Shown: one piece after another, positions 5,659 through 57,616 of the stretch
Position numbering within the stretch: the stretch's first letter is position 1
How the letters are laid out: each line of letters starts with the position of its first letter
From: Patescibacteria group bacterium
GTDB lineage: Bacteria; Patescibacteriota; Minisyncoccia; Phycocordibacterales; Phycocordibacteraceae
Direction of reading: 5' to 3'
Assembly (NCBI GenBank): GCA_040390125.1
Contig: JAZJYZ010000001.1
Span: 668,210 to 732,209 of the forward strand
Length of the DNA stretch: 64,000 bases
Notes under the pieces: model-generated
Databases searched by the model: none
The model's input: only the letters and a program-made list of their open reading frames with translations
What the model was told of the DNA's origin: nothing
Translations under genes and position numbers: made by a program

Positions 5659-5696
5659 GAAAAAATAAATAACCACTACAGTTAACTGCAGTGGTT
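5659..5696 (-). terminator. Intrinsic terminator (hairpin aaccactacag-ttaa-ctgcagtggtt then a U-run on the minus strand)
   Basis: 11-bp stem with one mismatch and loop ttaa. Plus-strand A-run 5659-5670 gives the U-tract for minus-strand transcripts. It lies just downstream of the 5720..5938 ORF. Confidence 0.55.
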
Positions 5697-5719
5697 ATTG
5701 TTCTAATTAAATACTGCAA

Positions 5720-9150: not shown

Positions 9151-9191
9151 GATTAGCCACTAGCCATTAGAGTTTAGCCACTAGGGTTAGG
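9151..9191. repeat. tagccac/tagggtt heptamer element overlapping the 3' end of the HAD gene
   Basis: gattagccactagccattagagtttagccactagggttagg. It encodes the last residues (LTLVAKL) of the HAD protein and fills the dnaG-HAD gap. Confidence 0.7.
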
Positions 9192-9790: not shown

Positions 9791-9878
9791 AGAGATATAG
9801 AAGGTAGAGCGTAGAGCGTAGTCGGTAGTTAAGAGTAGAAAGACTAAGTCGTTTCTAATTTCTACTCTCTACCCACTA
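9791..9878. repeat. gtagagc / ctctac heptamer-periodic element between the HAD start and the rpoC end
   Basis: tagaaggtagagcgtagagcgtagtcggtagttaagagtag ... tttctaatttctactctctacccactac. Same 7-nt periodic, half-palindromic design as the other intergenic elements. Confidence 0.7.
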
Positions 9879-24978: not shown

Positions 24979-25002
24979 TACCTTCATACAGAGATTTTCT
25001 CC

Positions 25003-25026
25003 TGTGCAACCTCCGGAGGTTGCACA
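25003..25026. repeat. 24-bp perfect palindrome tgtgcaacctccggaggttgcaca (TGTGC-N14-GCACA family) at the rnr 3' end
   Basis: Exact reverse-complement symmetry. A second identical copy is at 40229. The related copies 31836 and 40451 share the ends and the central ccgg. Confidence 0.85.
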
Positions 25027-25110
25027 GCTACTTACGAAGTGCATCTTGGCAAATTTTTCTGCATCAGAATCCAACGACCAAATTCTTTTTGATTCTGCTC
25101 TTTCAATTTC

Positions 25111-28922: not shown

Positions 28923-31100
28923 CTATTTCGCAACTTTCACAGCCTCTTCAAGTTTGACTGAAAGCACCTTCGAAACACCGTCGTTGCCCATGGTGATGCC
29001 ATAAAGAATTCCTGCCCGAGACATCGTTTCTCGATTGTGAGTGATGATGGCGAGCTGAGATTTTTTTGAGAGTGCCTCAACCATGTCGCCGTACCTGCGA
29101 CTATTTGACTCATCAAGTGCGGCATCGGTTTCATCAAGCATAAGAAACGGTGGTGGATTCACAGACGACATTGCAAAAATAAGCGCAATTGATGTCAATG
29201 TACGCTCCCCGCCTGAGAGCATGACCAAACTCTTTACACGCTTTCGAGGAATAGAGAGCGAGATATCAATTCCTGACGAGGTTTCTTCAGTTTCACGCTC
29301 CGCATCTCCGCCTTCCTCATCAAAAACATTCTCTGCTTTCCGCCGTACCGGCTCCTCAATACGTACCAATGACGCCGAACCACCGTCAAACATTAAAGCA
29401 AAGAACTTAGTGAACTCAGTGTTAATGGCATCAATACCTTCCGTAAAACGCACACTGAGTTCCGCTTCGAGGTTTTGTATTAATCCTTTTAAGGATACCG
29501 ACGCTGTTTCAAGATCAGCAAGTTCACGCTCTAGAAACGCTTCACGCTCGCTTGCCTCTTTATATTCTTTCATCACGTCAGCACTGGCACTCGTGCCCAT
29601 TTCCTCAAGGCGTATCTTGGTTTTCTCAAGCTCTCGCTTCTCTTGTGCTTGTGCGTCCCGAGACACAGATTCAATGACTAGAGAAGAATACGAAAGAGCT
29701 TCCCTACCAATAAGTGTTCCGGCCTCTAGCAAGTCACGTTCAAACTCAGCTTTTTCTAAACCAAGTCGCCCCATTTCACCTTCAAGCATATTCAAACGGT
29801 GCCTAACATCACGCTCGGCAGTGGCGAGACTGAAAAGAGCTCGTTCTTTTTCACGTTCATTCGTTCTCGCAGTATCAAGCTCGGTTCTGATGGTATCCAG
29901 CGATTCTGAAAGCTCTGTTTCTTTTTGAGCAAACTCTTTCTCGGCGTTCATCGCAAGCTCTCGTTCACGCTTGAGATGTGCCACATCCTCCGAGTCGTTT
30001 GCAGTAGTCGCAGTCAGCACTTTGAATCTGGCAAAGTACTCACGGAAAAAGGAAAGTACTTCCGCTATAGGACTATTAGAAAATCCATTGAGTGCCCTCT
30101 CTCCTTCCTCAACTAATTGCGAAACCTCCGAGAGAGGCAGGCTCGCATTACTCATCGTCCTTTCCAGAGCTTCAATCTGGCCTTCAAATCGTGACGCTTT
30201 TCTGAGTGCCTCTGCACGTGAACTCCTCGCACTATCAAGAGCACTTGATATTTCAAGAATGGCACTTCCACGTTTGTCTTCATCAGACTGTGCTAGAGCC
30301 TGCTTTGCCTCCGCTACTTTTCCAGCGATTTCCGCAAGCTCCTGACGCCTTTCTAAAAGTTCACTCTCAAATTGAGAGCTTGCCGCCCCCAGATAGGATT
30401 CTTCACGTTTGAAATATGTCTGAAAACGGAGGGTGGCAGATGCACGTAACACCTCAGCTTTCTCGACTTTCTCAACCTGCTTTTTTAGAAAGCGCAAATG
30501 CGGAGCAATCTCACGACGAAGCGCCTCCACTTGGCGCATATTTTCTTCTGTCTTCTGGAGCTTACGTAGGGACTCTTCGAGTTTATATTGATATGCCTTG
30601 AGACCAAGCGCATCTTCGAGCATTTCCCTGCGTTCACGTGGCGGAGCAGAGAGTATCTTGTCGGCTTCGCCTTGAGAGATGATGTGATGCCCGGTAGCCC
30701 CAATGTTTGCTCCTGCCAGTAATTCAAGAATGTCTTTCAGACGCACCTGGCTTCCGTTCAAGCGATACTCGTTGGTGCCATCCCTATTTACCACCCGCTC
30801 AATAACCACTTCATCAAAATCAAGATTTAAGAAACGTGACGTGTTGTCAAAGGCAATAGCCACCGATGCACGATTAGCTCGGGGTGTTGTTGCAGAACCA
30901 TTCCAAATAAGATCTTCACCACGCTTTCCACGCATCGATTTCATTGACTGTTCGCCCAATACGAAACGCACCGCTTCTGCGACGTTTGATTTACCTGAGC
31001 CGTTCGGGCCCACAATGGCAACTACTGACGTATTGAAATCAAAGCTAGTCTTCTTAGCAAAAGACTTAAAGCCCGCAATGTCGAGGCGAGTGAGATGCAT
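28923..31100 (-). CDS. smc: SMC-family ATPase, unusually short (725 aa)
   Basis: N-terminal Walker A FKSFAKKTSFDF...VGPNGSGKSNVAEAVRFVLGEQS. C-terminal signature/Walker B LSGGERTLTSIALIFA...LMLDETDAALD. Long coiled-coil in between. Confidence 0.8.
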   Translation of the reverse strand: MHLTRLDIAGFKSFAKKTSFDFNTSVVAIVGPNGSGKSNVAEAVRFVLGEQSMKSMRGKRGEDLIWNGSATTPRANRASVAIAFDNTSRFLNLDFDEVVIERVVNRDGTNEYRLNGSQVRLKDILELLAGANIGATGHHIISQGEADKILSAPPRERREMLEDALGLKAYQYKLEESLRKLQKTEENMRQVEALRREIAPHLRFLKKQVEKVEKAEVLRASATLRFQTYFKREESYLGAASSQFESELLERRQELAEIAGKVAEAKQALAQSDEDKRGSAILEISSALDSARSSRAEALRKASRFEGQIEALERTMSNASLPLSEVSQLVEEGERALNGFSNSPIAEVLSFFREYFARFKVLTATTANDSEDVAHLKRERELAMNAEKEFAQKETELSESLDTIRTELDTARTNEREKERALFSLATAERDVRHRLNMLEGEMGRLGLEKAEFERDLLEAGTLIGREALSYSSLVIESVSRDAQAQEKRELEKTKIRLEEMGTSASADVMKEYKEASEREAFLERELADLETASVSLKGLIQNLEAELSVRFTEGIDAINTEFTKFFALMFDGGSASLVRIEEPVRRKAENVFDEEGGDAERETEETSSGIDISLSIPRKRVKSLVMLSGGERTLTSIALIFAMSSVNPPPFLMLDETDAALDESNSRRYGDMVEALSKKSQLAIITHNRETMSRAGILYGITMGNDGVSKVLSVKLEEAVKVAK

Positions 31101-31776: not shown

Positions 31777-31835
31777 GTCGGGAAAATAACACAACAATAC
31801 CCGCAATGCAAGAGGAGTAATTTTAGCCCGTTTTT

Positions 31836-31859
31836 TGTGCTACACCCGGGTGTAGCACA
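31836..31859. repeat. 24-bp perfect palindrome tgtgctacacccgggtgtagcaca downstream of rnc
   Basis: Exact palindrome flanked by tttttt and aaa. An identical copy is at 40451. Confidence 0.85.
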
Positions 31860-31907
31860 AAGTACCCCTCTTTCCCTAAACACTAAACACTGTCCACTAA
31901 ACCCTAA

Positions 31908-38200: not shown

Positions 38201-38317
38201 TACAAAACGAACGCCAGCGTGATAACTGAAGGAACCTGCGTTCTCTTCAAGGGCAAGCTTTCAAAACGAAATGGCGAACCATCGATTTTGATTGAGAAAG
38301 TCAAAGAGCTCAAGTAG
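35225..38317 (+). CDS. dnaE: DNA polymerase III alpha subunit, compact 1030-aa form
   Basis: PHP domain HLSAHSHYSLLDG. Polymerase core (palm/fingers) recognisable. Shorter than the ~1160-aa E. coli DnaE. Confidence 0.9.
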   Translation: MSSFSHLSAHSHYSLLDGIVQIDALVNTAMFYGMPALALTDRNNLYGAIEFYKACKKAGIKPILGIDADIAIADTEDHIIFLAETNEGYQHLLKLISHAYLDLSKETGGNALPKVTAEHIQKYGKGLIALIPDTALVRRNSEALVEVLRQGLGKESVYARLGWNGGRDQQLRIAGIAKALELNLVASDDTYYLKPEDRQARDIVRRIAVPGVPADPSDLAFCSVETATERYRDFPEALANVEAIANRTDVTLNLGSWVFPHFPLPKGASYETELKNAIEKGLTERKMEATSEVRERIDYELSIISTKGFAPYFLTVADLLAYARNHGILTTTRGSAAGSLVSYLTGITNVDPMAYRLPFERFLNPERPSAPDIDMDFADNRRDEMIQYAKEKYGEECVAQIGTFGTMMARAAVRDVARALGYPYGVGDRIAKLIPMGSQGFPMTIKKALEIEDELKKLYQSDEDAEIIIDTAKQIEGNARHISIHAAGIVIAPTAVSDFVPVQFEPSGSAIITQYDMHEVEDAGLLKFDFLGLTNLSILGDSVERVIARKGERVDIENIPLDDKKTFAMLARGETGGVFQLGGSGMTHYLKSLKPSSIHDINAMVALYRPGPMESIPEYIERKHNPALVTYLDPRMKDILDRSYGIITYQDDVLLIAITLAGYSWLEADQLRKAMGKKIPAEMEAQKEKFIQGCLEHGKLQKTKAESLWKLIEPFAAYGFNKGHAASYGKVAYQTAYMKANHTEDYMAALLSADSGNVERIADDVAECERIGIRVLPPDINESFESFTVIAGGMIRFGLSTIKNFGEGASKAVIEERYRGGKFTSIGDVLSRLPGSILNRRALESLIKCGVFDAFNNRGILLGNIEKLLLFAKDAGATSAGQDSLFGAMPATTNIALNPAPALSQIEMLNSEKELLGVYVSGHPLDQFKVELAKYPHSIKFARAEERNGYPLVVCGVIESIKTILTKKGDKMAFITITDKDGFIETVAFPEVYKTNASVITEGTCVLFKGKLSKRNGEPSILIEKVKELK

Positions 38318-38392
38318 GTTATAGGTTTTAGGGGATAGGTTTTAGTTTTCCCGATTTTAAACTAGCACCTATAACCTAGTCCCTAGAACCTG
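38318..38392. repeat. taggtt/aacctag heptamer palindromic element between dnaE and thrS
   Basis: gttataggttttaggggataggttttag - ttttcccgattttaaac - tagcacctataacctagtccctagaacc. Confidence 0.75.
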
Positions 38393-40216: not shown

Positions 40217-40228
40217 GTTATCTTCGTT

Positions 40229-40252
40229 TGTGCAACCTCCGGAGGTTGCACA
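40229..40252. repeat. 24-bp palindrome tgtgcaacctccggaggttgcaca (second copy)
   Basis: Identical to 25003-25026. Confidence 0.85.
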
Positions 40253-40450
40253 AACACAAATATTACTTGGGGGAATGAGTCGCAGTTTGCTGCAGAAATG
40301 CTTCTACCACGCCCTTTGGAGCTCGTCGCATCAAGTCCAGGAAGAACTTATACCTACTACCTCCCCTGCCAAGACCCCACCAGACATTTACGAGTTGCTC
40401 TAGGGTTACCGGTTTTAAAGCCTCTCGATGTTCCATATTTTTGATGTATT

Positions 40451-40474
40451 TGTGCTACACCCGGGTGTAGCACA
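40451..40474. repeat. 24-bp palindrome tgtgctacacccgggtgtagcaca (second copy)
   Basis: Identical to 31836-31859. Lies 60 nt past the 3' end of the adhesin gene. Confidence 0.85.
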
Positions 40475-40533
40475 AAATTGGTGGGATTAATCTGCGGGCT
40501 GTCACACCTTCCCTTCTCATACGTTTTAGTTAA

Positions 40534-44333: not shown

Positions 44334-45041
44334 TTATAGCGTTTCGATGGCAATCAAGTCCGCTTTCACTTCATAACGCTTTGTCTTTTGCTTACCAAAT
44401 GAATCGCACGTAACCAGTGTGAGTGTTGGTGCACCAACACCGAGTGCAACTTCCGCATCGCCAGCATCCACATAGTCGATAGAGACAATACGGTAGCGAT
44501 ACGTAGAGTCGCTAGAGTACACAAGCACTTCATCACCTGGCCGAACATTCTGAAGTCCATTGAAAGCTTTAAACGCCTGATTTTTAACAACAGGCAGATA
44601 GCTCTGATGTCCGAAGATGAATACCGTTCCGTCCTCTCCAAGAAGTGCCGAACCTGGATAGCGAACTGCTCCATGAAGAAGTGCCGAATCCAGTGCCTCT
44701 ACTTTTGTAGATGAAGGATTACCAATTGGTGTGTCTATACCCACCTTAGGAATGACAAGACGAACCGGAGCGTTCGCAATCTTTGATACGGCCGCAACTT
44801 GCTTTGCAGACACAGTTTTAACTTCTGCTTCTTCGGCAATCGGCGCCGAAGCCTGAAACGTTACAGTGGATGCTTCTGCGATATTCGAAGTATTTGAGAT
44901 TGCACCCGGTGACTCTGGTACAAAATCAATGGCGAAGAGAACGACTGAAATCGCAAAGAACAATACCAAGAACACCGTCAAAAATTCCCACGGTCTGAGC
45001 GTTGGACGTTCAATATTCGGTAATTTCTTTTTTCCATCCAT
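44334..45041 (-). CDS. Sortase-family transpeptidase
   Basis: N-terminal TM anchor. Catalytic His in FIFGHQSYL, Cys in TLTLVTCDS (TLxTC motif) and a conserved Arg region RYRIVSID. Confidence 0.85.
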   Translation of the reverse strand: MDGKKKLPNIERPTLRPWEFLTVFLVLFFAISVVLFAIDFVPESPGAISNTSNIAEASTVTFQASAPIAEEAEVKTVSAKQVAAVSKIANAPVRLVIPKVGIDTPIGNPSSTKVEALDSALLHGAVRYPGSALLGEDGTVFIFGHQSYLPVVKNQAFKAFNGLQNVRPGDEVLVYSSDSTYRYRIVSIDYVDAGDAEVALGVGAPTLTLVTCDSFGKQKTKRYEVKADLIAIETL

Positions 45042-45147
45042 ACTTCAAAAAACTATTCCGCACCAAACTGATGGAACGTTCTGCGCAGTTTCCGTTTCAT
45101 ATAGTACATCATAGAATATGTTTTGTCAATAGTCATACAATCCACCA

Positions 45148-47586
45148 TTATTTCTTCTTCAAGTCAGCAAACACACCAATTTCAACCTCTTTTTTGATTG
45201 CACGCTGAAGGAAACCGAATATGGTATCAGGAGAACCATCTGTGGTTGTAAACTCCGCCAAGCCTTTTTCTTTACCTCCTGGGGACAACACTTCTCCATA
45301 CAAATGCAGGCGACCACCAAGCTCTCGAATCTCAGCATCATTCAAAATATCCCCAAAGACCGCCTTAAGAGCGATAAATCTCTCCCCTTCTGTCTTCCCA
45401 GCTATAAATGCTTCAGGAATTTTCGACAAAAATACTTTTTCAAGTCGACCTACATCAGCATCGCTAGTCTCTATACCTGGAATAATTCCTCGCCCAATGA
45501 AATTGAGTTGATTGTTGATAATCTCAGTGCGAGTACGTCCAATTTCGGATGTCTCTAATATACCGTTGTGATTCAAGTCAGTGCCCGGAACTAGAATATT
45601 GGGAACTCCGTCTTTTACTAGATCTGTATCAACACCCGTAAGAGGAATCACATCTCCAGGAAAAAGTATTGTTCTGTCATCCATACGATGAGCACCCGTC
45701 AAACGCAAGGTCTCACCATCTCCAGTGATAGCACCCTGGAATTGTGCTTCAGTCGTAATAGTCATCGACTTCCCGTTCACTTCAACGAACGGATGAGAAA
45801 ATTGCCCAGTTTTCAAATCAAGACAAAGATACTCCATCTTGCCAGTGAGGCTACTTGTAAACTTGATGTATACAAATTTACTCTCAATATTTGCTTGATA
45901 GTCTGGACCAAGAACGCCCTCTTTCACTGATGCTAAAACATACTCCTTCGCCTGAAGTGCACTCTCGCCAATGTAATTTATACCTACAAGATTTGAAATA
46001 CGATCCGCTGAACTACATTGATCCAAGCAATCAGCAATAATAGTGCCGCCAGACTGCATCCACCACTGATTTCTATTGACCACAAGTTCAGGTGGACTTG
46101 GAGGTGTCTCGAGCGGAGGAAGAGGTGGAGGAGGGGTTCCAGGAGGCGTAACAATTTTATCTTCGTAGAGTGAAAAATTCCAACAAGATTGCCCACCAGT
46201 AACCTTTCCTTCGGGAACATCAATGACGACATTGTGCAAAAAACCACGTGAATCAGTATAAGGAAACGAAAACTGCTCTGCTTTATACATTGGAGGAGTG
46301 CCACCTCTAAACCCAGGCTCTCTGCTTGCATCAAACACAACTCTATCTGCTCCAGCTCCGAGTACCTGTGGCACACCCTTAACCCTGAAGGCCTGTGCTT
46401 CCCACGCTCTCTTTATAAACTCTACATATTGTGGGTTCTCATTTAAGCCTTGTGCAGTCGCAGCCTTCATAAAGGCATTTCCAGCTTCAGGATTCATGCC
46501 ACCTTTGATAAGCATATTGAGTGCGTCACGTATTGAAGGTTGAGCGAACGCCTCTGCTCGAGTGCGTGCCCATGGTGCATCACCGAAGTGTGTAATAAAT
46601 TGATTTCTTCCTCCAGTTGGAACAAGTTCAGCAGCGGAGGCAGGGCCACCAAGAACGACCCGTGCACCAGTTTCAAGACCGTGCAAGGCATTATTGCCAA
46701 GCTCAGCTAAGCCTGCACGAAACTGCCAGTAACTACCTTCACCGTTGGCAATGCTCTCGGCGACTTTGCTACCCCAAGCGTTAGCAAGGTGGTCGTTAAG
46801 CAATTGATCGGAGAGGTTCGAAGAGAGATGAGCGAGAGAGTCTCCCGCAACCACAAATGTTCCGACAGAAGTCAGAACACCAGCACCCCACCGTGCGGAA
46901 AAGCGCCACAATTTTGAATTACGACGTTCTTTAAGAAGTTTGGCGTTTTCACTGACGAATTGTTCATGAGTCTTTCCTACTGCTTTTGCCTCAACTTCTT
47001 TTTTTGCTATATCAGATGCGACCCTCGAGCTCACAGTGCCAATCAACTCTTTACGCTTGAGAACTTTAGAGATCACGAATCCCGGAATAATTGATGCGAC
47101 AGCCCTGGTTCCACCTCCCACTGCTACAAACCCAACACCCCCTGCAAGACCTACGATTTTGCTTACAAGAAGACTCGTGTGCTTCCCTGCCGCTTTATCT
47201 GCTTCTGCATACAAGAATCTTTCTGCTGCCTCATTGTCAAAAGCCTGAAACAGGAAATTTCGATACACGGAAACCGAAGACCGGTACTGTGCGAGTGCTA
47301 CATCGAAATCGGCTTTGTGTTCAGGGGCAATGCTACGTCCCGTCATTTTACTGAATTTTTGTGGCACTCGATCGAATGCATCTCGAGCCTGCTTCACTCG
47401 AGCGAGAAGCGTCTCACTTATCCTTTTGAATTCTTTAACCGCCTCTTCTTTTTCAATATCGACAGAAGTCTTCTCGCGAAAAGGATTTTTCTTTTTTGCA
47501 AAACTAACCGCACTCTCAAAGCCCGCTCTCAATGAGACTGGAGGTTTGGATGGGTGTCCTTCTAAAGCGGGTGCATCAACAGACAT
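45148..47586 (-). CDS. Large hypothetical membrane protein (812 aa) with Pro-rich segment
   Basis: ATG start. Two predicted TM helices (about aa 140-175 and 235-255). PPGTPPPPLPPLETPPSPPEL tract. No family recognised. Confidence 0.55.
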   Translation of the reverse strand: MSVDAPALEGHPSKPPVSLRAGFESAVSFAKKKNPFREKTSVDIEKEEAVKEFKRISETLLARVKQARDAFDRVPQKFSKMTGRSIAPEHKADFDVALAQYRSSVSVYRNFLFQAFDNEAAERFLYAEADKAAGKHTSLLVSKIVGLAGGVGFVAVGGGTRAVASIIPGFVISKVLKRKELIGTVSSRVASDIAKKEVEAKAVGKTHEQFVSENAKLLKERRNSKLWRFSARWGAGVLTSVGTFVVAGDSLAHLSSNLSDQLLNDHLANAWGSKVAESIANGEGSYWQFRAGLAELGNNALHGLETGARVVLGGPASAAELVPTGGRNQFITHFGDAPWARTRAEAFAQPSIRDALNMLIKGGMNPEAGNAFMKAATAQGLNENPQYVEFIKRAWEAQAFRVKGVPQVLGAGADRVVFDASREPGFRGGTPPMYKAEQFSFPYTDSRGFLHNVVIDVPEGKVTGGQSCWNFSLYEDKIVTPPGTPPPPLPPLETPPSPPELVVNRNQWWMQSGGTIIADCLDQCSSADRISNLVGINYIGESALQAKEYVLASVKEGVLGPDYQANIESKFVYIKFTSSLTGKMEYLCLDLKTGQFSHPFVEVNGKSMTITTEAQFQGAITGDGETLRLTGAHRMDDRTILFPGDVIPLTGVDTDLVKDGVPNILVPGTDLNHNGILETSEIGRTRTEIINNQLNFIGRGIIPGIETSDADVGRLEKVFLSKIPEAFIAGKTEGERFIALKAVFGDILNDAEIRELGGRLHLYGEVLSPGGKEKGLAEFTTTDGSPDTIFGFLQRAIKKEVEIGVFADLKKK

Positions 47587-47781
47587 ATTTAAATTATTTA
47601 TAGAAAATCTTTAGGGAAATATCAATTTCGAATCTGACGAACAGTATCACGCTAAAATGGCTTTGTCAAGCCTCTGTAACGGTACCCTTTCATAGCCGGC
47701 TAACAAGAGTTCTCATTACGAATGAGTTAGAGCTCAAGTGAAAGCTTGACAATAGTAATCTTATATGATATACAGTGTTTT

Positions 47782-48864
47782 ATGGAAAACGATGTAAAAA
47801 AGAACCAGTCACGCTTAGGAGGAGTCGCCGTTCGTGCACTCGCTATTTTTGGCTTCCTTGCGATTATCATTGTAGGTATGTGGGGCTCTGTCCAAGTGGC
47901 ACGAGGTGTCCCTAATGCATTCTCATCACTTGCCTCGGCGGTTGCAAGCTTTACTTCAGTCTTCATTCCTGCGGGAGAGAAAATTACTCTTTCAACGGCA
48001 TCATTTACATTAAACTCAAACGAGCCTTTCACTATTTCATGGAGACACGATAAGAAAAGTCTCGACGGCTCATACACCTTCCGCTACGACTGTGCAGACG
48101 CTGTCTACTTCAACTCCCCTACTATTTCTGGTACTCCAGCGACTATTTACTGCAATACCTCTTTCAACTTTTTGAACTCAGGCAACCAGATTACGCTCAT
48201 TCCTGTCTCATCTAATAACCGCTTCGTTGACGTGCAGGTCTTCATTGACTTCACTCCAAACGGCGCTTCCCGCCCTACCGTTACCGGGCAAACCACGTTT
48301 ACTATTGTGAACAATGGCAACACAACCAGCCCAGGAACACTTGCTCCTGCAACTACTACGCCAACCACTGTTACTCCTAAGCCAGTCACCCCAACGCCAG
48401 TAACGCCTCGTCCTGTCACTCCTGGCCCTACACAAACAGGCGTCTACCCAGTCACCGGTGGAGTGGCAGTCTCTGATCCGAACGGCTACGTTGACCTTAC
48501 CGCACGCATCATTGAAGTAGGTATCGTCGACAAGACAACGGGCGTCTTTACCGCAAGCTCAACACCAACCCGTGCAAACAATCGTATTGCGGTACGCTTT
48601 GCAGTCGAGAACATCGGGACTAAGACCTCGCCAACGTTCGACTTCAATGCGGTGCTTCCAACACTCCCTTCAAACATCTTTTCAGCACCTATGCAACAGT
48701 CTCTCGCTCCCGGCGACCGCATTGAGTTCACGGTAGGGTTCGACAGCTTCAATAGCTCAAAGCCAGACGGACTCTTTGTGGTCAACATCGACCCATCAAA
48801 CCGCATCAACGAACGCAATAAGGTTAACAACATCGTGCAGTACACAATTACGACGAGACCGTAA
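47782..48864 (+). CDS. Membrane-anchored surface protein with Thr/Pro linker and C-terminal CARDB-like domain
   Basis: ATG at 47782 is preferred over the TTG at 47746. N-terminal TM AIFGFLAIIIVGMW. TPKPVTPTPVTPRPVTPGP linker. The C-terminus (DLTARIIEVGIV...ENIGTKTSPTFDFNAVLP...SLAPGDRIEFTVGF...INERNKVNN) matches the CARDB pattern. Confidence 0.65.
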   Translation: MENDVKKNQSRLGGVAVRALAIFGFLAIIIVGMWGSVQVARGVPNAFSSLASAVASFTSVFIPAGEKITLSTASFTLNSNEPFTISWRHDKKSLDGSYTFRYDCADAVYFNSPTISGTPATIYCNTSFNFLNSGNQITLIPVSSNNRFVDVQVFIDFTPNGASRPTVTGQTTFTIVNNGNTTSPGTLAPATTTPTTVTPKPVTPTPVTPRPVTPGPTQTGVYPVTGGVAVSDPNGYVDLTARIIEVGIVDKTTGVFTASSTPTRANNRIAVRFAVENIGTKTSPTFDFNAVLPTLPSNIFSAPMQQSLAPGDRIEFTVGFDSFNSSKPDGLFVVNIDPSNRINERNKVNNIVQYTITTRP

Positions 48865-48898
48865 GTAGGCTTTAGCCATTAGGGTATAGGGTTTAGTC
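48865..48898. repeat. tagggtt/tagccat heptamer element after the CARDB gene stop
   Basis: gtaggctttagccattagggtatagggtttagtc, the same 7-mers as the 9151-9191 element. Confidence 0.6.
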
Positions 48899-48925
48899 AA
48901 AAAGAATAAATTAAAATAAAAAGAT

Positions 48926-49060
48926 ATGAATGAATCAATGATGGAATGGTCTTTGGGACGTGCGACCGATGAAGGTAATTCACGCACGACCCGCAGACGC
49001 AGAGGTGCAGCGAGAGCGGGACTGAGAAAGCATTTTGAAGAACAATCACGTAACATATAA
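48926..49060 (+). CDS. Arg-rich micro-ORF (44 aa), doubtful
   Basis: MNESMMEWSLGRATDEGNSRTTRRRRGAARAGLRKHFEEQSRNI. Below the ORF-track cutoff. Followed by a terminator at 49115. Confidence 0.2.
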   Translation: MNESMMEWSLGRATDEGNSRTTRRRRGAARAGLRKHFEEQSRNI

Positions 49061-49114
49061 TCCGACGGGTGCGACCTGCCCTGAGGTCCGTTGCGGACTC
49101 GAAGGGACTCCAAG

Positions 49115-49146
49115 CAAAAAACTCTCCTTAGCCGGAGAGTTTTTAA
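49115..49146 (+). terminator. Bidirectional intrinsic terminator aaaaaactctcc-ttagcc-ggagagttttt
   Basis: 8-bp stem extended by A/T pairing and followed by a T-run. Lies between the CARDB gene and the palindrome cassette. Confidence 0.6.
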
Positions 49147-49186
49147 TTATGTATATTTTTTAATTTCATATCTTAATCACTGTCAT

Positions 49187-49220
49187 GTCTAAAAAATTAC
49201 CATATGGTAATTTTTTAGAC
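49187..49220. repeat. 34-bp perfect palindrome gtctaaaaaattaccat|atggtaattttttagac
   Basis: Exact reverse-complement symmetry centred on catatg, in an AT-rich region upstream of the 49355 ORF. Possible operator. Confidence 0.85.
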
Positions 49221-49244
49221 AGGTCATGTAGTGTGTGACTCTAC

Positions 49245-49266
49245 CCTATACGATCGATCGTATAGG
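49245..49266. repeat. 22-bp perfect palindrome cctatacgatcgatcgtatagg (left flank of the cassette)
   Basis: Exact palindrome. A near-identical copy ctatacgattgatcgtatag is at 50035-50060 on the other side of the 49355..49990 gene. Confidence 0.85.
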
Positions 49267-49354
49267 TTTCTAAGCGAATAGAGGCCTTAGACTGAAGGCT
49301 TTTGATTTCTAGGAATACCGTGATACCTTTCAACATAATTCACAGAGAAAACAT

Positions 49355-49990
49355 ATGGGGGATATGAATTTTTTTGAAACGGGGGGGGTGCAGGCAAACC
49401 TTAAAGATAGGCACGAAGAGCTTTTATCGGATGCACCAAGAGTGCAAGAAACTCTGCGAAGGCGAGCTGTATGGTTAGAGTCTGAGCTGGAGTCTGAAGA
49501 AAGAAAAAACACCTGGCAGAAATTTTGGGGTGCGTTATTAAGTCTCGATGGTCCAGAACAAAAGCTTTTTTTAAAAATACTGCGAGAAGGTGGCGGCGGC
49601 GGACGACCACTCCAACACAAAGGTGCGGTAAAAGGTCGGAAAAGAGGCCCCTACAAAAAAGAAAATCCAGATGCTCTAACGTCATCTGCAAGACAACTAG
49701 GGAGGCCTCGCCAAGAGAAAACAGTCAAAGAAATGTTACCTATTGCGATTCTCCCAAAAACAGAGCACGCAGGACATCCCAGAGAAGAAGTGGACATCGG
49801 GCCTCTTAGGGGAGGAATAAAAAAGACTTCTGTCTCTTCAGTCTCTGAACAAGACATAGCGAAGGCCGTCCAAAATCTCCGTTCCCATACAGGAAACCCT
49901 CTTGCAAGAAGAAGCGTGCGAACATTTTCAAATATTTTTAATGGGGCAGAAGAAATTGACTGGGGAAGATTTTTCAAAAAAATGAGGTAG
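49355..49990 (+). CDS. Basic hypothetical protein (211 aa) with a G8 homopolymer in codons 8-11
   Basis: ATG ORF MGDMNFFETGGVQ.... G8 run at 49381-49388. Rich in R/K, includes a GGGGG stretch. No family recognised. Flanked by matching palindromes. Confidence 0.5.
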   Translation: MGDMNFFETGGVQANLKDRHEELLSDAPRVQETLRRRAVWLESELESEERKNTWQKFWGALLSLDGPEQKLFLKILREGGGGGRPLQHKGAVKGRKRGPYKKENPDALTSSARQLGRPRQEKTVKEMLPIAILPKTEHAGHPREEVDIGPLRGGIKKTSVSSVSEQDIAKAVQNLRSHTGNPLARRSVRTFSNIFNGAEEIDWGRFFKKMR

Positions 49991-50034
49991 AGAAAAAATG
50001 AAACCGGAGAAGTAAACTATACGATTGATCGTAT

Positions 50035-50060
50035 AGTTTAAGTTTATGTACATATGAAGT
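50035..50060. repeat. Near-palindrome aaactatacgat-tg-atcgtatagttt (right flank of the cassette)
   Basis: Differs by one central base from the core of the 49245 palindrome. Confidence 0.8.
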
Positions 50061-50082
50061 GAATAAAAAAATACTACAGTTA

Positions 50083-50118
50083 ACTGTAGTATTTTTGGTG
50101 TCTTCCCTAAACCCTAGT
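50083..50118. terminator. Bidirectional intrinsic terminator A7-atactacag-ttaa-ctgtagtat-T5
   Basis: Perfect 9-bp stem with flanking A and T tracts. Shares the core ctacagttaactg(t/c)ag with the terminator at 5671. Serves the cassette gene (+) and gyrB (-). Confidence 0.7.
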
Positions 50119-50130
50119 GACTACTGGCTA

Positions 50131-50141
50131 CCCCCCCCCCC
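50131..50141. repeat. C11 homopolymeric tract
   Basis: ctggctaCCCCCCCCCCCtagc between the terminator and the gyrB 3' end. Confidence 0.8.
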
Positions 50142-50174
50142 TAGCTGTGGAGTGTTTTTTATTTGCCTTTTAAT

Positions 50175-50218
50175 CTAAAAAGCTGAAAGCTAACAGCTGA
50201 AACCTGAAAGCTAAAAAG
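50175..50218. repeat. agctgaa-type heptamer element abutting the gyrB stop
   Basis: ctaaaaagctgaaagctaacagctgaaacctgaaagctaaaaag. Confidence 0.7.
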
Positions 50219-52291
50219 TTAGATATCCAACGTCGCTGCTTTCGCATTCGACTGAATGAATGACTTTCTAGCTGGAACATCCGTGCCCATGAGGATGTCG
50301 AACACTCTGTCAGCGTCTTGTCCGTCCTCAACGTTTACTTGCTTCAAAACACGGCGAGCAGGGTCCATGGTGGTCTCCCACAACTCCTCTGGGTTCATTT
50401 CTCCCAATCCTTTGTAGCGTTGAATGGTTGGCTTTGCCTGCTTTTTAGTAGCCTTGCTTTCGCTCTCTTCTTCGGTTTCTTCTAAGTCAGTTTCCTCTAA
50501 GGATTCTTCAGTATTGAATTCTTCGCTCTTAATGCCACGAGCCTTTAGAAGTGCTTCCAATTCTGCTTCAGTTTGTAAGTAAAAAACCTCCTTACCAAAT
50601 TTTGCTTTGAAGAGCGGCGGCTGTGCAATGTACAAGAAGCCTCCGTCAATCACCCCACGGAAATAGCGATAGAAGAGCGTTAACAAAAGCGTGCGGATGT
50701 GTGCACCGTCTACGTCGGCGTCTGTTGCAATAATTATCTTGTGGTAGCGGAGTTTTGAAATATCAAACAAATCCCCTATCGCAGTACCCATTGCAATAAC
50801 CAGATTTTTAATTTCGTTAGATGCAAGCATTTTGTCGAGACGTGCACGCTCCACGTTCAAAATCTTTCCTCGAAGTGGCAAAATTGCTTGTGTACGCCTG
50901 TCCCGCCCTTGTTTTGAAGAGCCACCTGCTGAATCTCCCTCGACGATAAATATCTCTGATTCCCATGCGTTCTTTGTTTGGCAGTCAGCAAGTTTGCCTG
51001 GCAGTGTCATGCCGTCCAAGGCACCTTTGCGAAGCACAGAATCTTTCGCCGCTTTTGCAGCTTTGCGAGCTTTTAATGCAAGAAGCACTTTTCCGATGAT
51101 TGAACGAGCTTCATCGGGATGCTCCTCCAAGAACATGTTAAATCCCTCACTGAATGCAGTTTCAACTGCACCACGAGCTTCTACACTGCCTAACTTGCCC
51201 TTAGTCTGACCTTCAAATTGAATCTCACGAAGTTTTACTGAAATGATCGCAGTCAAACCTTCCAAAACATCTTCGCCGGTAAAGTTTTCGTCTGCCTCTT
51301 TTACAATATTATTTTTACGTGCGTATGAATTGAGCGTTCGAGTGAGTGCGGTTTTGAATCCTGTCACATGCGTTCCCCCTTCAGCGTTGTAGGTATTGTT
51401 GGCAAACGCCGTAATGCGTGCAGAAATATCGTCAACGTACTGCAATGCCACTTCTACTTGTACGTTATCTACTTCTTTCTCCACGTAGAAAACAGACGAG
51501 TGCACTGGTTTTTGAAAGCGGTTGTTGAAGGTGACGAGCGACTTCAGACCCCCCTCAAAATAGAATGTCTGGGACGGCACAAGAAGTCCCAAATCCCGGA
51601 AGTAACGCACATCAGCGAGGTCAATCTTTCCTGGGTATTCTCTCGCATCAATAATAGAAATACGCACACCCTTCACGAGGTACGCCTGCTGACGAAGGTG
51701 TTGCACAATTTTATTGAAATCATATTCAATAACAGGGAAAATCTGTGGATCAGCATCAAAAGTAATGACACTGCCACGCCAATCTGAAGAGCCTACCTTT
51801 TTTACTTTTGCACGTGCTTTGCCTCGGTCGTACTCCTGCAAATAGTAGCCACCATCACGATGAATTTCTGCCTTAGTGTAGGTTGAAAGTGCGTTCACGA
51901 CAGATACACCCACACCATGCAAACCGCCTGAAACTTTATAACCATCTCCACCGAACTTACCACCAGCGTGGAGAGTGGTCATAATAGTTTCAAGTGCTGA
52001 TACTTTTGTTTGCTTGTGAATGTCGACGGGAATACCACGGCCATTGTCAGCATTACGAATTCGGTTGTTAGGAAGAAGAGTTACTTCAATATCATCTGCG
52101 TGATTACCCATCGCTTCATCACGCGAGTTGTCGAACACTTCCCAGATGAGGTGATGCAACCCGTCCAAACCGGTTGTGCCGATATACATTCCGGGGCGCT
52201 TCCGCACTGGCTCCAAGCCCTCGAGAACGGTAATAGATTCAGCACTGTACCCCCCTGACTTTTTAGCTTCTTTCTTTGGTGTTTTTGCCAT
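50219..52291 (-). CDS. gyrB: DNA gyrase subunit B
   Basis: GHKL ATPase motifs HHLIWEVFDNSRDEAM and LHAGGKFGG. TOPRIM EGDSAGGS. C-terminal QRYKGLGEM. The ATG at 52291 (MAKTPKKEAKK...) is preferred over the GTG at 52336. Confidence 0.93.
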   Translation of the reverse strand: MAKTPKKEAKKSGGYSAESITVLEGLEPVRKRPGMYIGTTGLDGLHHLIWEVFDNSRDEAMGNHADDIEVTLLPNNRIRNADNGRGIPVDIHKQTKVSALETIMTTLHAGGKFGGDGYKVSGGLHGVGVSVVNALSTYTKAEIHRDGGYYLQEYDRGKARAKVKKVGSSDWRGSVITFDADPQIFPVIEYDFNKIVQHLRQQAYLVKGVRISIIDAREYPGKIDLADVRYFRDLGLLVPSQTFYFEGGLKSLVTFNNRFQKPVHSSVFYVEKEVDNVQVEVALQYVDDISARITAFANNTYNAEGGTHVTGFKTALTRTLNSYARKNNIVKEADENFTGEDVLEGLTAIISVKLREIQFEGQTKGKLGSVEARGAVETAFSEGFNMFLEEHPDEARSIIGKVLLALKARKAAKAAKDSVLRKGALDGMTLPGKLADCQTKNAWESEIFIVEGDSAGGSSKQGRDRRTQAILPLRGKILNVERARLDKMLASNEIKNLVIAMGTAIGDLFDISKLRYHKIIIATDADVDGAHIRTLLLTLFYRYFRGVIDGGFLYIAQPPLFKAKFGKEVFYLQTEAELEALLKARGIKSEEFNTEESLEETDLEETEEESESKATKKQAKPTIQRYKGLGEMNPEELWETTMDPARRVLKQVNVEDGQDADRVFDILMGTDVPARKSFIQSNAKAATLDI

Positions 52292-52475
52292 TTTGATATA
52301 AAAAAGAGCCCTTTCTAGCTCCTCATATTTTAGCACATTTCAGACTCCTTTTCCGCCCTTTTTACCCCCTGTTTTCGGCTCATTTCTTAGGTTATTTCCA
52401 TAACATATACGCCCATCTAACGTTGCTCTATTGTCTAATTCCCGGGAATAGTGGAATAGTTAGAATTGAGTCTTC

Positions 52476-53738
52476 CTAAATTCCCCAATTCGCACCGATA
52501 TCTTTTCGATACTGCAGACCATCAAACGTGATGCCTGAAACAGCCTGATATGCCTTTTTAGTCGCCTCTTCAGAGGTTTCGGCAGTTGCACTTACACTGA
52601 GCACTCTTCCTCCCGCAGTAATCACTTCTTTTTCTGTTTTCTCAGTTCCTGCATAAAAAACAACAACCGATGAATCGGCAATGGTGTCCAAGCCCTTTAT
52701 TGCGAACCCACTCGTATATTTTCCTGGGTATCCACCTGAAGCCATCACTACCGTACACGAAAAGTTTTTACTCCAACGAATTTCCCGGTTCACCAACCTC
52801 CCTTCCGCACAGTCGAGCATAATGTCCAGAAGGTCTGACTCGAGGAGCCTCATATACGATTGTGCCTCTGGGTCGCCAAATCGAGCATTAAATTCAATCA
52901 CACGAATACCGGCCTTTGTGATCATGAGTCCTGGATACAAAACTCCCTTGAAAGGAGTACCTTCATCCGCCATACCCTTAATGACAGGGAGTACTATTTT
53001 TTCTTCAACCTCTTTTAGAAAATCTGCGGAAACCGAAACTGGTGCTATGACACCCATACCTCCAGTGTTTGCGCCGGTATTACCGTCTCTCGCCCTCTTA
53101 TGGTCACGAGCGACAGGAAACAATTTCGCAGTGGTGCCATCGCAAAATGCATGAATCGATACTTCAGGACCTTCTAGAAATTCTTCAAATACCACAGTTT
53201 TTCCTGACTCGCCAAATGCCTCATCAACCATGAACGCCTTCAGTGTGCTTTCGGCCTCCTCGTGTGTTTGTGCTATCACCACACCCTTCCCCAATGCAAG
53301 CCCGTCTGCCTTAATGACAATAGGTAGTACTTGAGTTTTTGCGTAAGCAAGTGCTTCGTTGAATGTGGTGAATGTTGCAGACGAAGCGGTCGGGATTCCA
53401 TGCCGATTCATAAAGTCTTTGGAAAATGCTTTTGACCACTCCAACTTTGCGCCTGCCTTCGTGGGACCAAACGCAAGTACACCAGCCGTAGCTAAAGAAT
53501 TAACAATCCCAGAAGCAAGAAAATCATCGGGGCCAACCACCACAAGACCAATATCTTTCTCTTTGCAAAAACTAATAACGGCCTTGTGATCTTGTGTATT
53601 AATAGAAACATTCTCCCCAACGAGCAGAGTGCCCGCATTGCCTGGTGCAATATACAGTTTCGTACAGCGAGGCGACTGCGAAATCTTCCATGCGAGTGCA
53701 TGCTCTCTTCCCCCTCCTCCGATAACCAAAACATTCAT
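52476..53738 (-). CDS. purD: Phosphoribosylamine--glycine ligase
   Basis: MNVLVIGGGGREHALAWK N-terminus and an ATP-grasp core. Confidence 0.9.
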   Translation of the reverse strand: MNVLVIGGGGREHALAWKISQSPRCTKLYIAPGNAGTLLVGENVSINTQDHKAVISFCKEKDIGLVVVGPDDFLASGIVNSLATAGVLAFGPTKAGAKLEWSKAFSKDFMNRHGIPTASSATFTTFNEALAYAKTQVLPIVIKADGLALGKGVVIAQTHEEAESTLKAFMVDEAFGESGKTVVFEEFLEGPEVSIHAFCDGTTAKLFPVARDHKRARDGNTGANTGGMGVIAPVSVSADFLKEVEEKIVLPVIKGMADEGTPFKGVLYPGLMITKAGIRVIEFNARFGDPEAQSYMRLLESDLLDIMLDCAEGRLVNREIRWSKNFSCTVVMASGGYPGKYTSGFAIKGLDTIADSSVVVFYAGTEKTEKEVITAGGRVLSVSATAETSEEATKKAYQAVSGITFDGLQYRKDIGANWGI

Positions 53739-53753
53739 ACCGTTAACAGTATA

Positions 53754-54584
53754 CTAGCGCTCCTTTGTAACCTGCACGCTCATCTGCGGAACAGGAATGG
53801 TAATTTTTTCAGCCTCTAGGGTTTCCTTAATTTTTTCAACAACCATAAACAGTGTTGCACGCTCCTTGTCGGCATTATCAACCCACACACGAGCGAGCAT
53901 TTTAATGGCTGAATCACCAAAGCCTTCGGCAACAACGCTCGGCGCCGGTTCTTTGCGTACTCCTTTGATTTCGCTGAGTGTCTTTACAAGCACTTCTCGC
54001 ACACGAGGGACTGATTCTTGGTATGCAATGCCAAACGGCACCGCAATGCGAAGCTCTCCGTGAGATGAGTGATTGATCAACACTTCGTTTGCAATCTTCT
54101 GATTTGGAATAACTACGAACGTGTTATCGAGCGTACGAATACGTGTAGTACGCATCGTTATCTTCTGCACCCTGCCATACATGTCACCCACCGTAATCCA
54201 TTGGCCGATCTTGAATGGCTTATCCACGTAAATGAGAACGCCAGAGATAATGTTGGCAAGCGTGTCCTGTGCGGCAAATCCAAGTGCAATGCCGGCAATA
54301 CCGAGGCCCGCAACCGTAGCCGCAAGATTAATACCAATCTGCCCTGCAGCGATAACCACTGCTATAAGAAAAAGAAGTACACGATAGACGGTATTGACGA
54401 GAAGCTCAGCATTTACTTGCTGAACGCCTCTCCACGCTAAGAGGCGCATCAAGGGACGCTTAGTGAAGTGGTATATCACCCAAAAGACGAGCAGTATAAA
54501 AAAAGCAGAAAGAAGCTTCGGGAGCGATATGGTGAGTGCGGATATAAAACCCTCACTGTTAAATGCTTTACTAATTGCGTCCAT
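53754..54584 (-). CDS. Small-conductance mechanosensitive channel (MscS family)
   Basis: Three TM helices then the MscS beta-domain signature IGQWITVGDMYGRVQKITMRTTRIRTLDNTFVVIPN. Confidence 0.85.
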   Translation of the reverse strand: MDAISKAFNSEGFISALTISLPKLLSAFFILLVFWVIYHFTKRPLMRLLAWRGVQQVNAELLVNTVYRVLLFLIAVVIAAGQIGINLAATVAGLGIAGIALGFAAQDTLANIISGVLIYVDKPFKIGQWITVGDMYGRVQKITMRTTRIRTLDNTFVVIPNQKIANEVLINHSSHGELRIAVPFGIAYQESVPRVREVLVKTLSEIKGVRKEPAPSVVAEGFGDSAIKMLARVWVDNADKERATLFMVVEKIKETLEAEKITIPVPQMSVQVTKER

Positions 54585-56456: not shown

Positions 56457-56503
56457 AATTAGAAAGTGGAAAGTAGGATATAGAAGGTAGATAACAACAT
56501 AGA

Positions 56504-56869: not shown

Positions 56870-57616
56870 CTACACTCCACCCTCTACACTCTTACTATCA
56901 AATCCGTAGACGAATCTAGTATCACCCGAATGGAAAAGACGTACATCAGGAATCCCGTACTTCACCATTAAGAGTCTCTCAAGCCCTCCTCCGAACGCAA
57001 ACCCTTGCACCTTCTCAGAATCAAGTCCTGCATTTTTAAAAACGCTTGGATGAAGCATTCCGGCTCCCGCCATCTCGAGCCAACGTCCCTCTTTCCCTGG
57101 CGCCTCAAACCACACATCTATCTCAACTCCGGGCTCGACAAACGGAAAGAAGCTGGGACGAAAACGCACTTTTGTACCCTCACCTAAATATTCTTTGTAA
57201 AAACGGTCAAAGGTTCCCTTCAAGTGCCCGAGGGTAATCTCACCAGTGGGTGCCACCGCAAAGCCATCAAGTTGATAGAACTGAGCCTCGTGAGTCATGT
57301 CGGTTGCTTCGTTGCGAAATACCTTACCGGGATTTATGGTGCGCATTGAAGTAGCGCCAGATTTTGCCATTTCCTCAAGGCAACGAATAGTCACGGATGT
57401 ATCGTGAGTGCGGAGTACAAAGCCAGGACGGTCTTTTATCCAAAACGTGTCCTGCATGTCACGAGCAGGATGATCAGCCGGCACATTGAGAGCACTGAAA
57501 TTATGAAATTCATCCTCAAGTTCAGGCCCGTAGGCAATACTGAAACCCATGCGTCCGAAAATCTCCGCAATATCTCGGAGGGCGACAGAAATAGGGTGCA
57601 AGCGACCTTTTGGCAT
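56870..57616 (-). CDS. pheS: Phenylalanine--tRNA ligase alpha subunit, catalytic core only (248 aa)
   Basis: Class-II motifs FNFSALNVPADHPARDMQDTFW and GFAFGGGLERL. Lacks the usual N-terminal ~90 aa. Confidence 0.9.
   Translation of the reverse strand: MPKGRLHPISVALRDIAEIFGRMGFSIAYGPELEDEFHNFSALNVPADHPARDMQDTFWIKDRPGFVLRTHDTSVTIRCLEEMAKSGATSMRTINPGKVFRNEATDMTHEAQFYQLDGFAVAPTGEITLGHLKGTFDRFYKEYLGEGTKVRFRPSFFPFVEPGVEIDVWFEAPGKEGRWLEMAGAGMLHPSVFKNAGLDSEKVQGFAFGGGLERLLMVKYGIPDVRLFHSGDTRFVYGFDSKSVEGGV

Follow-up and report, generated by a model that had tools for sequence, protein, structure and literature searches.

The spacer between the gene for a CARDB-domain protein and gyrB, in the 64-kb window of contig JAZJYZ010000001.1 (the window being the whole stretch of 64,000 nucleotides that was analysed), is filled by a block at positions 48865 to 50141, in which an initial annotation had seen a palindrome-bracketed cassette and a possible phase-variable or mobile module. 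Our analysis indicates that this block is probably strain-specific accessory DNA with one gene, inserted where two conserved genes converge on a variable spacer, and that its decorations are typical of the genome. The host genome is a metagenome-assembled genome (MAG) of a Paceibacteria-type Patescibacterium. The insert, which the related genomes compared here lack, contains one open reading frame (ORF), ORF211.

An insert in a variable spacer

The following features define the spacer and the insert.

47746 to 48864, plus strand: left anchor, gene for a CARDB-domain protein (Pfam CARDB E = 5e-7; 192 homologues; synteny kept in relatives)
49063 to 49122, plus strand: junction element J, consisting of CGACGGGTGCGACC, a variable hairpin and GACTCCAAGCAAAAAAC, and running into terminator T1
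49117 to 49144, unstranded: T1, the conserved bidirectional intrinsic terminator of the slot, AAAAACTCTCC-TTAGCC-GGAGAGTTTTT (11-bp stem, A5 and T5 flanks)
49155 to 50148, plus strand: strain-specific insert of about 1 kb (boundaries by alignment)
50149 to 50165, plus strand: T2 remnant, right arm and tail of a terminator, GGAGTGTTTTTTATTTG, at the right boundary of the insert
50219 to 52336, minus strand: right anchor, gyrB (Pfam domains precomputed for an identical Logan contig; synteny)

The two anchor genes converge on a spacer of 1354 bp (48865 to 50218). Syntenic loci were reached via homologues of the CARDB protein (58-76% identity) in 11 relatives, 10 of which contain both flanks; the locus L011 ends inside the spacer. 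Gene order was constant in the 10 (sortase, large protein, CARDB on the plus strand, spacer, gyrB on the minus strand, purD, mscS). The spacers of the relatives measured 142-932 bp, compared to 1354 bp here, and differed in their content of mini-ORFs, as follows.

L025 and L026, the most distant relatives: J and the terminator only
L009, L011 and L012: a zinc-ribbon mini-ORF (CxxC...CxxCxGxG)
L007: an ORF of 95 amino acids (aa)
L018: a 95-aa ORF as in L007 together with a zinc-ribbon ORF, and a repeat of J at the flanks
L015: ORFs of 51 and 41 aa, with the terminator duplicated

The insert was missing in all 10 relatives with both flanks. Its left boundary is T1, which together with its flank matches the gyrB-proximal terminator of L015 at 42 of 44 bases. 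On the right, positions 50149-50201 of the window align to the right arm of the L013 terminator and the adjoining gyrB flank with a score reached by none of 200 shuffles. Since a full terminator stands on the left and the right-arm remnant of a second copy on the right, the DNA from about 49155 to 50148 is extra.

J was found in L007, L009, L011, L012, L015, L018, L025 and L026. Its form across these relatives is CGACGGGTGCGACC followed, with or without a hairpin of varying sequence in between, by CTCCAAGCAAAAAC, and its place is before the terminator and after either the CARDB gene or the mini-ORFs. Where the spacer is shortest, J begins 6-9 nt past the CARDB stop codon. The coordinates in the relatives are given below.

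L015: 6418-6475
L018: 3902-3929 and 4111-4138
L025: 4083-4150
L026: 4083-4145

J may be a conserved motif of a 3'-untranslated region or of a small RNA. It had no match in Rfam, and RNAalifold recovered only the terminator stem from an alignment in which the long and short forms aligned poorly.

We propose that the ancestral spacer would have contained only J and one bidirectional terminator, and that different lineages would later have gained different mini-genes in it. In the present genome, the segment from 49155 to 50148 would have been added behind the terminator, which would have been duplicated in the event, and the likely route would be illegitimate or short-homology recombination of incoming DNA. 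The insert would have brought one real, fast-evolving gene, ORF211, whose N-terminal domain would belong to a tiny family known only from the same spacer.

ORF211 and a family of small proteins confined to the spacer

49355 to 49990, plus strand: ORF211, a basic protein of 211 aa with an N-terminal helical domain, a Gly/Lys/Arg-rich linker and a poorly predicted C-terminal half
49335 to 49340, plus strand: CATAAT, candidate -10 box 14 nt before the ORF211 ATG, by analogy to TATACT-like boxes

ORF211 is identical to the NCBI protein MES2135395.1 (locus tag V4449_04095), encoded on a MAG contig of 748,944 bp, for which NCBI places the start at 49364. The initial annotation had described it as very basic and without recognisable family, and both points held. 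Its isoelectric point (pI) is 10.0, with 39 Lys and Arg compared to 28 Asp and Glu residues, and no sequence match better than E ~ 0.01 was obtained in Pfam, PHROGs, PADLOC, NCBIfam or PDB, the last searched with both the single protein and a profile. In the AlphaFold2 model, four helices span residues 12-78 with a predicted local distance difference test (pLDDT) score of 71-85, and the remainder scores below 50; a Foldseek search of this model against PDB returned nothing with E < 1 (best E ~ 1.7). No known family or fold matched ORF211 in these sequence library, profile and Foldseek searches.

The in-frame coding score of ORF211 (+0.104 per codon) exceeded all 145 off-frame scores (mean -0.51, maximum 0.068), and the GC content at third codon positions was 0.36, compared to 0.42 for the genes of the window. 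The N-terminal domain (residues ~28-78) carries the motif R..WL..E.R..FQ.FFGAL.SL..E..FL. A word-indexed search of 5.8 billion proteins retrieved ORF211 itself only, and a full HMMER scan of 1.84 billion representatives added a single protein, P0122 (E = 1.6e-4, 37% identity, residues 17-99). P0122 is encoded in the CARDB-gyrB spacer of L008, where its paralogue P0123 adjoins. BLASTP gave 4e-8 for ORF B of L008, pairwise BLASTP values were 4e-8 and 2e-6, and a third member of 85 aa is present in L013 and L014. These homologues of the N-terminal domain show 29-38% identity and are confined to the CARDB-gyrB spacer. An alignment of four members, A4, contained 12 invariant columns and the motif R..WL..E.R..F(Q/E).F(F/W)G.L..L..E..F(L/M), followed by a Lys/Arg-rich tail. 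On these grounds, we define a family of small proteins, termed FFGAL, all members of which lie in the CARDB-gyrB spacer.

A profile search of the 5.8 billion proteins yielded no members beyond the two L008 proteins, a scan of metagenome loci gave 129 pattern sites of which none was confirmed by tblastn, and a local hidden Markov model search of all fetched loci recovered the known members only. Two further ideas were rejected at an hhalign probability below 1%, namely that the domain recurs in the C-terminal half of ORF211 and that the 95-aa protein of L007 belongs to the family.

The family gene is located upstream of the conserved terminator in L008 and L013, and downstream of it here, and the insert showed no DNA similarity above shuffles to the spacers of L013 or L015. 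Because the position differs and no DNA similarity remains, the family copies are either old and fast-evolving or separately acquired. The initial annotation had held that a conserved syntenic orthologue would contradict its cassette. What we found in the same spacer (L008, L013) are homologues indeed, but distant ones that share the N-terminal domain only. We conclude that ORF211 is a real, lineage-restricted gene with a C-terminal extension of uncertain standing. The basic, disordered segment of the model suggests that the protein may bind nucleic acids, and CATAAT may, by analogy with the boxes before other genes of the window, be part of its own promoter.

In L008, the tandem pair of family genes is bracketed by two N10 scaffold gaps (9267-9276 and 9931-9940), which hints at assembly trouble caused by repeats or by population heterogeneity at both ends of the cassette.

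Homopolymer tracts and heptamer arrays

49381 to 49388, plus strand: G8 tract in the non-conserved N-terminal lead-in of ORF211
50131 to 50141, plus strand: C11 tract (G11 on the minus strand), adjoining a heptamer array, at the place of the left arm of the terminator remnant
48866 to 48900, plus strand: TAG-heptamer array TAGGCTT TAGCCAT TAGGGTA TAGGGTT TAGTCAA, directly past the CARDB stop codon and kept in L011, left arm of an apparent bracketing inverted repeat
50103 to 50130, minus strand: TAG-heptamer array TAGCCAG TAGTCAC TAGGGTT TAGGGAA, right arm of an apparent bracketing inverted repeat
50178 to 50215, minus strand: heptamer repeats of the CTTTCAG/CTGTTAG type, five to six units, directly past the gyrB stop codon

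One explanation for the two homopolymer tracts, in line with the possible phase variation raised by the initial annotation, is that ORF211 is a phase-variable contingency gene, in which slipped-strand mispairing at G8 would switch the product on and off in the population and C11 may tune a neighbouring signal. G8 is real and lies near the 5' end of the ORF, although in codons 9-12 from the ATG at 49355 (codons 6-9 from the NCBI start) rather than in codons 8-11 as first stated, and C11 does follow a terminator, 35 nt past the right palindrome at 50067-50096. The two are the sole G/C runs of at least 7 in the 64 kb, and there is none in ~117 kb of syntenic DNA of the relatives; runs of at least 6 are depleted in the genome, with 7 in the window compared to 14.7 in shuffles. 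A tract of G7 would truncate the product to 40 aa and one of G9 to 16 aa, such that on/off switching at G8 by slippage could work mechanically. The placement of homopolymer tracts close to gene 5' ends is a described regulatory device in prokaryotes (PMC2831843).

Against switching, both tracts had the same length in the MAG and in the Logan assembly of the same run (SRR26324623), at the level of consensus sequences. The protein searches found ORF211 in no other strain. A run of 8 nt is at the low end for efficient slippage switching. C11, for its part, lies between genes, where a G-rich heptamer array and a defunct terminator arm adjoin it and no gene or promoter is present for it to act on. 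Among the literature matches listed, no publication joined Patescibacteria with phase variation or homopolymers. Taken together, we regard phase variation of ORF211 as unlikely.

For C11, membership in a heptamer array and in the terminator remnant is a better explanation than a phase switch. Read on the minus strand across C11, the sequence runs TAG-G10, TAGCCAG, TAGTCAC, TAGGGTT, TAGGGAA, and slippage within one G-rich unit of this array is the probable origin of the tract. Such TAGNNNN arrays (CTAG-centred, three to five units) occur 15 times in the 64 kb, compared to ~0.7 in shuffles, and at a period of 7 only. They are always intergenic, beside stop and start codons; examples in the window are 2966-3034, 4694-4767, 9154-9188, 9798-9878, 38315-38385, 48866-48900, 50103-50130 and 56474-56494. 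With TAG at a 7-nt period, each of the three frames contains a stop codon. L015 contains three TAG-heptamer arrays in 11 kb, and a check of seven other comparison loci, the syntenic L007, L008, L009, L012 and L018 among them, found none. Repeats like those at 50178-50215 are present in L013 and L015.

Palindromes and hairpins

49186 to 49221, unstranded: perfect palindrome of 36 bp whose arms include A6 and T6, with the shape of a bidirectional terminator (palindrome scan, folding)
49245 to 49266, unstranded: pal1, perfect 22-bp palindrome CCTATACGATCGATCGTATAGG, 89 nt before the ATG (palindrome scan)
49281 to 49310, plus strand: third upstream hairpin, AGAGGCCTT-AGACTG-AAGGCTTTT, with a T-rich tail and the shape of a terminator or attenuator (RNA fold, region z-score -4.05)
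50013 to 50040, unstranded: pal2, 13+2+13 hairpin TAAACTATACGATTGATCGTATAGTTTA of 28 bp, 23 nt past the stop codon (palindrome scan)
50067 to 50096, unstranded: perfect 15+15 palindrome AAAAATACTACAGTTAACTGTAGTATTTTT with A5 and T5 flanks and the shape of a bidirectional terminator (palindrome scan, folding)

Folding placed three successive hairpins in the 210 nt between T1 and ORF211, and two after ORF211. The palindromes of the initial annotation were largely recovered, with corrections. The perfect palindrome said to be 34 bp long and to start at 49187 measures 36 bp, and the bidirectional terminators given at 49115 and 50092 are terminator-shaped hairpins at 49117-49144 and 50067-50096. 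As for the two near-identical perfect palindromes, pal1 is perfect at 49245 and the pair agrees at 19 of 20 bases, but the 20-bp core of pal2 lies at 50017-50036 rather than at 50035 and its two central bases mismatch.

The agreement of pal1 and pal2, 771 bp apart on either side of the gene, is not expected by chance (0.00 matches in 100 window shuffles) and could indicate an autoregulated DNA-binding protein, i.e. a dimer of ORF211 that binds both palindromes and represses or loops its own locus. A basic protein in which a disordered, Lys/Arg/Gly-rich segment follows a compact helical domain would suit this role. The sequence and fold searches, however, assigned the protein to no DNA-binding family or fold, helix-turn-helix included, palindromes of this kind are missing near the homologues in L008 and L013, and the position of pal2 past the stop codon is unusual for an operator. 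Moreover, two-copy perfect palindromes are common in this genome at the ends of unrelated genes, without any such protein. We therefore consider autoregulation by ORF211 quite unlikely.

Perfect palindromes (arm of at least 9, loop of at most 8) number 23 in the 64 kb, compared to 1.55 in shuffles, and 18 of them lie between genes; many are built like bidirectional terminators, with a stem between an A-run and a T-run. An identical 28-mer palindrome, TTTGTGCTACACCCGGGTGTAGCACAAA, occurs at 31834-31861 and 40449-40476, at unrelated gene ends; near-identical palindromes contain TGTGCAACCTCCGGAGGTTGCACA at 25002-25027 and 40226-40255; and the core CTACAGTTAACTG is common to the palindromes at 5668-5699 and 50067-50096. 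With such pairs at the ends of unrelated genes, hairpin families of two copies are normal for this genome. Under the accessory-insert reading, pal1 and pal2 would be a locally duplicated hairpin, as in the other two-copy terminator families here, and together with the 36-bp palindrome, the third hairpin and the A5-stem-T5 palindrome they are predicted terminators or insulators, which would shield ORF211 from CARDB read-through and gyrB from antisense read-through.

The window contains no further copies of pal1 or pal2, the only pair being the one that flanks ORF211. Genome, viral and metagenome collections were scanned with the 20-mer core, CTATACGATNGATCGTATAG, which was present at eight distinct loci from several phyla (two in Paceibacteria, one each in Aureispira, Spirosoma and Geobacteraceae, and three on unassigned metagenome contigs); the Spirosoma stretch is also held as an IMG/VR viral contig. 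Most of these loci are embedded in longer, unrelated hairpins, and we estimate that the count does not exceed what common perfect hairpins would produce. The core was therefore treated as a coincidence rather than as a motif conserved across genomes. As an oddity, pal2 shares 26 nt with the Paceibacterota locus L006. In L002, an unrelated Parcubacteria MAG, the palindrome core lies at 217-260 in a C5/G5-extended, T-tailed hairpin 7 nt downstream of a C8 run; this echo of the pairing of palindrome and poly-C is probably a coincidence.

Capture and mobility

Units flanked by repeats occur in the spacers of three genomes, a pattern that suggests recombination at short hairpin or junction sequences. 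In L018 (3898-4140), a perfect 28-nt direct repeat of J surrounds a zinc-ribbon mini-ORF whose ATG abuts J, and in L015 (6469-6682), a 33-nt terminator is doubled around a 150-nt piece that contains a 46-bp palindrome, GACGGTATAGTATAAATTAACGATCGTTAACTTATACTATACCGTC, centred on CGATCG. These units, J-ORF-J and terminator-palindrome-terminator, together with T1-insert-T2 including pal1-ORF-pal2 in the present genome, could be taken to mark the CARDB-gyrB spacer as a dedicated capture site, an integron-like array without an integrase, in which G8 would switch the newest cassette. We deem such a capture site improbable.

The block could also be a small mobile element of the IS200/IS605-like, miniature inverted-repeat transposable element (MITE)-like or integron type, with ends formed by pal1 and pal2, by G8 and C11 or by the heptamer inverted repeats. 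In favour of such an element are the insertion relative to 10 relatives with a direct duplication of the terminator at the flanks, the repeat-flanked units of L018 and L015, the N10 scaffold gaps that bracket the family genes of L008 and the nested inverted repeats in the block. However, pal1 and pal2 are not at the ends of the insert, as would suit the terminal repeats that the initial annotation had considered, but ~90 nt and ~108 nt inside its boundaries (~49155 and ~50148). The outer inverted repeat (48873-48896 and 50107-50130) was rejected as element ends, both arms belonging to the genome-wide class of TAG-heptamer arrays, and the relatives have their insertions at differing points, either on one of the two sides of J or past the terminator, which argues against a single recombination site. 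Of the repeated units, J is a leader of the RNA type and the terminator is an intrinsic one.

The proteins of the 64-kb window contain no transposase, integrase, recombinase or phage gene, and no integrase was present among the called genes of the relatives' loci. ORF211 itself had no Pfam, NCBIfam or PHROG match to a transposase (Y1 HUH TnpA, TnpB, DDE). By inspection, the flanks of pal2, AGTAAAC and GTTTAAG, do not fit attC cores (RYYYAAC ... GTTRRRY). Neither a second copy of the cassette or of the ORF family nor a second palindrome pair was found in the window, no copy was present in the 5.8 billion proteins, and phage and plasmid collections gave no match to the block, so that a phage or plasmid origin was rejected as well. 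The initial suggestion of a small mobile cassette thus stands in so far as the DNA is variable, cassette-like, missing in all 10 relatives and bracketed by duplicated terminators, but it lacks a recombinase and a second copy in the window, and we rate a mobile element as very improbable.

Observations that weigh against an accessory insert

A number of observations nevertheless weigh against reading the block as an ordinary accessory-gene insert. No donor sequence was found in the protein, metagenome, phage or plasmid collections. The coding score of ORF211 is below those of all 29 reference genes in the window (0.153-0.395), its last 110 residues are poorly modelled and without homologue, and part of the gene could be young or decaying; a consensus scan revealed no full sigma-70 promoter upstream. 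Terminators or insulators between convergent genes are the simplest reading of the hairpins and a role predicted by their shape, yet the T-tails of pal1 and pal2 are weak. Finally, both G/C runs of at least 7 in the 64 kb lie inside one 1-kb insert, and if G8 and C11 have no function, their clustering is an unexplained coincidence.

The coding score and the C-terminal half without homologue (pLDDT < 50) could also mean that ORF211 is a decaying or chance frame in non-coding filler, and the break of both Logan contigs in the 36-bp palindrome that the block is an assembly artefact at a palindrome or homopolymer, but we give little credence to either, given that an open frame of 211 codons in 1.3 kb at 46% GC has an estimated chance expectation of ~0.005, that the in-frame score surpasses every off-frame score, that the N-terminal domain is kept at the protein level in three other genes, that the ORF-to-gyrB link and the C11 junction are present in an independent k = 31 assembly, and that the order from CARDB to gyrB is the same in all relatives. 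The two Logan contigs, from a separate assembly of SRR26324623, match the window at 100% identity, G8 and C11 included, the one over 44782-49215 and the other over 49192-53832, and both end within the 36-bp palindrome. Because they break there, the join between the CARDB side and the ORF side across this palindrome rests on the MAG assembly alone.

Genomic setting of the block

48926 to 49060, plus strand: mini-ORF of 44 aa in the first slot of the spacer (coding score +0.105 per codon)

The 44-aa mini-ORF is a putative gene only. It occupies the slot that contains zinc-ribbon mini-ORFs in L009, L011 and L012, its start shares short DNA with the L009 gene (AATCAATGATG...GGTCT), and its product is free of cysteines; divergence or decay of the zinc-ribbon gene may have produced it. 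The CARDB gene has, according to NCBI, an ATG start that gives 360 aa. The housekeeping genes of the window comprise rpoD, dnaG, rnr, smc, rnc, nusB, thrS, gyrB, purD, pheST, tsf and rpsB.

The GC content is 42.3% for the block, 45.3% for ORF211 and 41.5% for the insert. AT-richness, which the initial annotation had stressed, is therefore real but ordinary, as the spacer (48865-50218) with the ORF has 41.8% GC (38.7% in its non-coding parts), compared to 42.1% for other intergenic DNA and 47.1% for genes in the window. Most genes of the window lack a Shine-Dalgarno sequence and have instead a TATACT/TATAAT-like box that ends 6-10 nt before the ATG (e.g. at 2135, 19967, 28923-31100, 52476-53738 and 56870-57616), a pattern which suggests that the mRNAs of this organism may be leaderless or have very short leaders.

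An origin of replication beside gyrB was ruled out, as 48865-50218 contains neither TTATCCACA nor a relaxed DnaA box, let alone a cluster of such boxes, and the cumulative GC skew drops on both sides of the block without a switch. A known structured RNA in the block was likewise ruled out. A search of 47500-51000 on both strands against Rfam (E <= 1) gave no hit at gathering score (best E = 0.03, the other two E > 0.9), and in the whole window tRNA-Thr alone passed the Rfam gathering thresholds, with nothing in the block from Rfam or ARAGORN.

Relation to known systems

The block is a worked example of how striking palindromes and homopolymers in a Patescibacteria genome can resolve into ordinary accessory DNA. 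It also led to the definition of a new, very narrow family of small proteins, in a lineage that keeps swapping mini-genes in the spacer between a surface-protein gene and gyrB. Tiny symbionts of the Patescibacteria type have few mobile elements. If either a capture mechanism or the G8 switch were true, it would be a first hint of how tiny symbiotic bacteria vary their accessory functions.

Among known systems, hypervariable islets resemble the locus in their conserved flanking core genes and gene order, their differing small, unannotated and fast-evolving genes, their atypical codons and their slightly lower GC content. In contrast to these islets, the insert is ~1 kb long with one gene and no mobility genes, and several units are flanked by a duplicated terminator or junction. 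Integron gene cassettes share the small unannotated ORFs in one slot, each followed by an imperfect palindrome, and the repeats around some of them (J-ORF-J in L018), but here there is no IntI in the 64 kb and no attC R/L core (GTTRRRY), the insertion points vary and the repeats are ordinary terminators. IS200/IS605 elements and units like repetitive extragenic palindromes (REP) or MITEs have subterminal hairpins around a small ORF, and the present genome has repeated palindrome families; it differs in the lack of a Y1 HUH transposase or TnpB, in the single copy in the window and in the location of the hairpins inside the insert. With contingency loci of the Neisseria, Campylobacter and Haemophilus type, ORF211 shares a poly-G tract near the coding 5' end, where a shift of one base truncates the product, whereas the tract here is 8 nt long, C11 controls nothing recognisable and both consensus assemblies have the same length.

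The heptamer arrays, in turn, are similar to the TAACTGA intergenic direct repeats known from Beggiatoaceae, Cyanobacteria and Bacteroidetes (PMC4679880), which are also short tandem intergenic heptamers with a stop triplet beside stop and start codons. In contrast to TAACTGA, the unit here is TAGNNNN, CTAG-centred and with a variable tail, and among the genomes checked it is found only in this genome and in the L015 clade.

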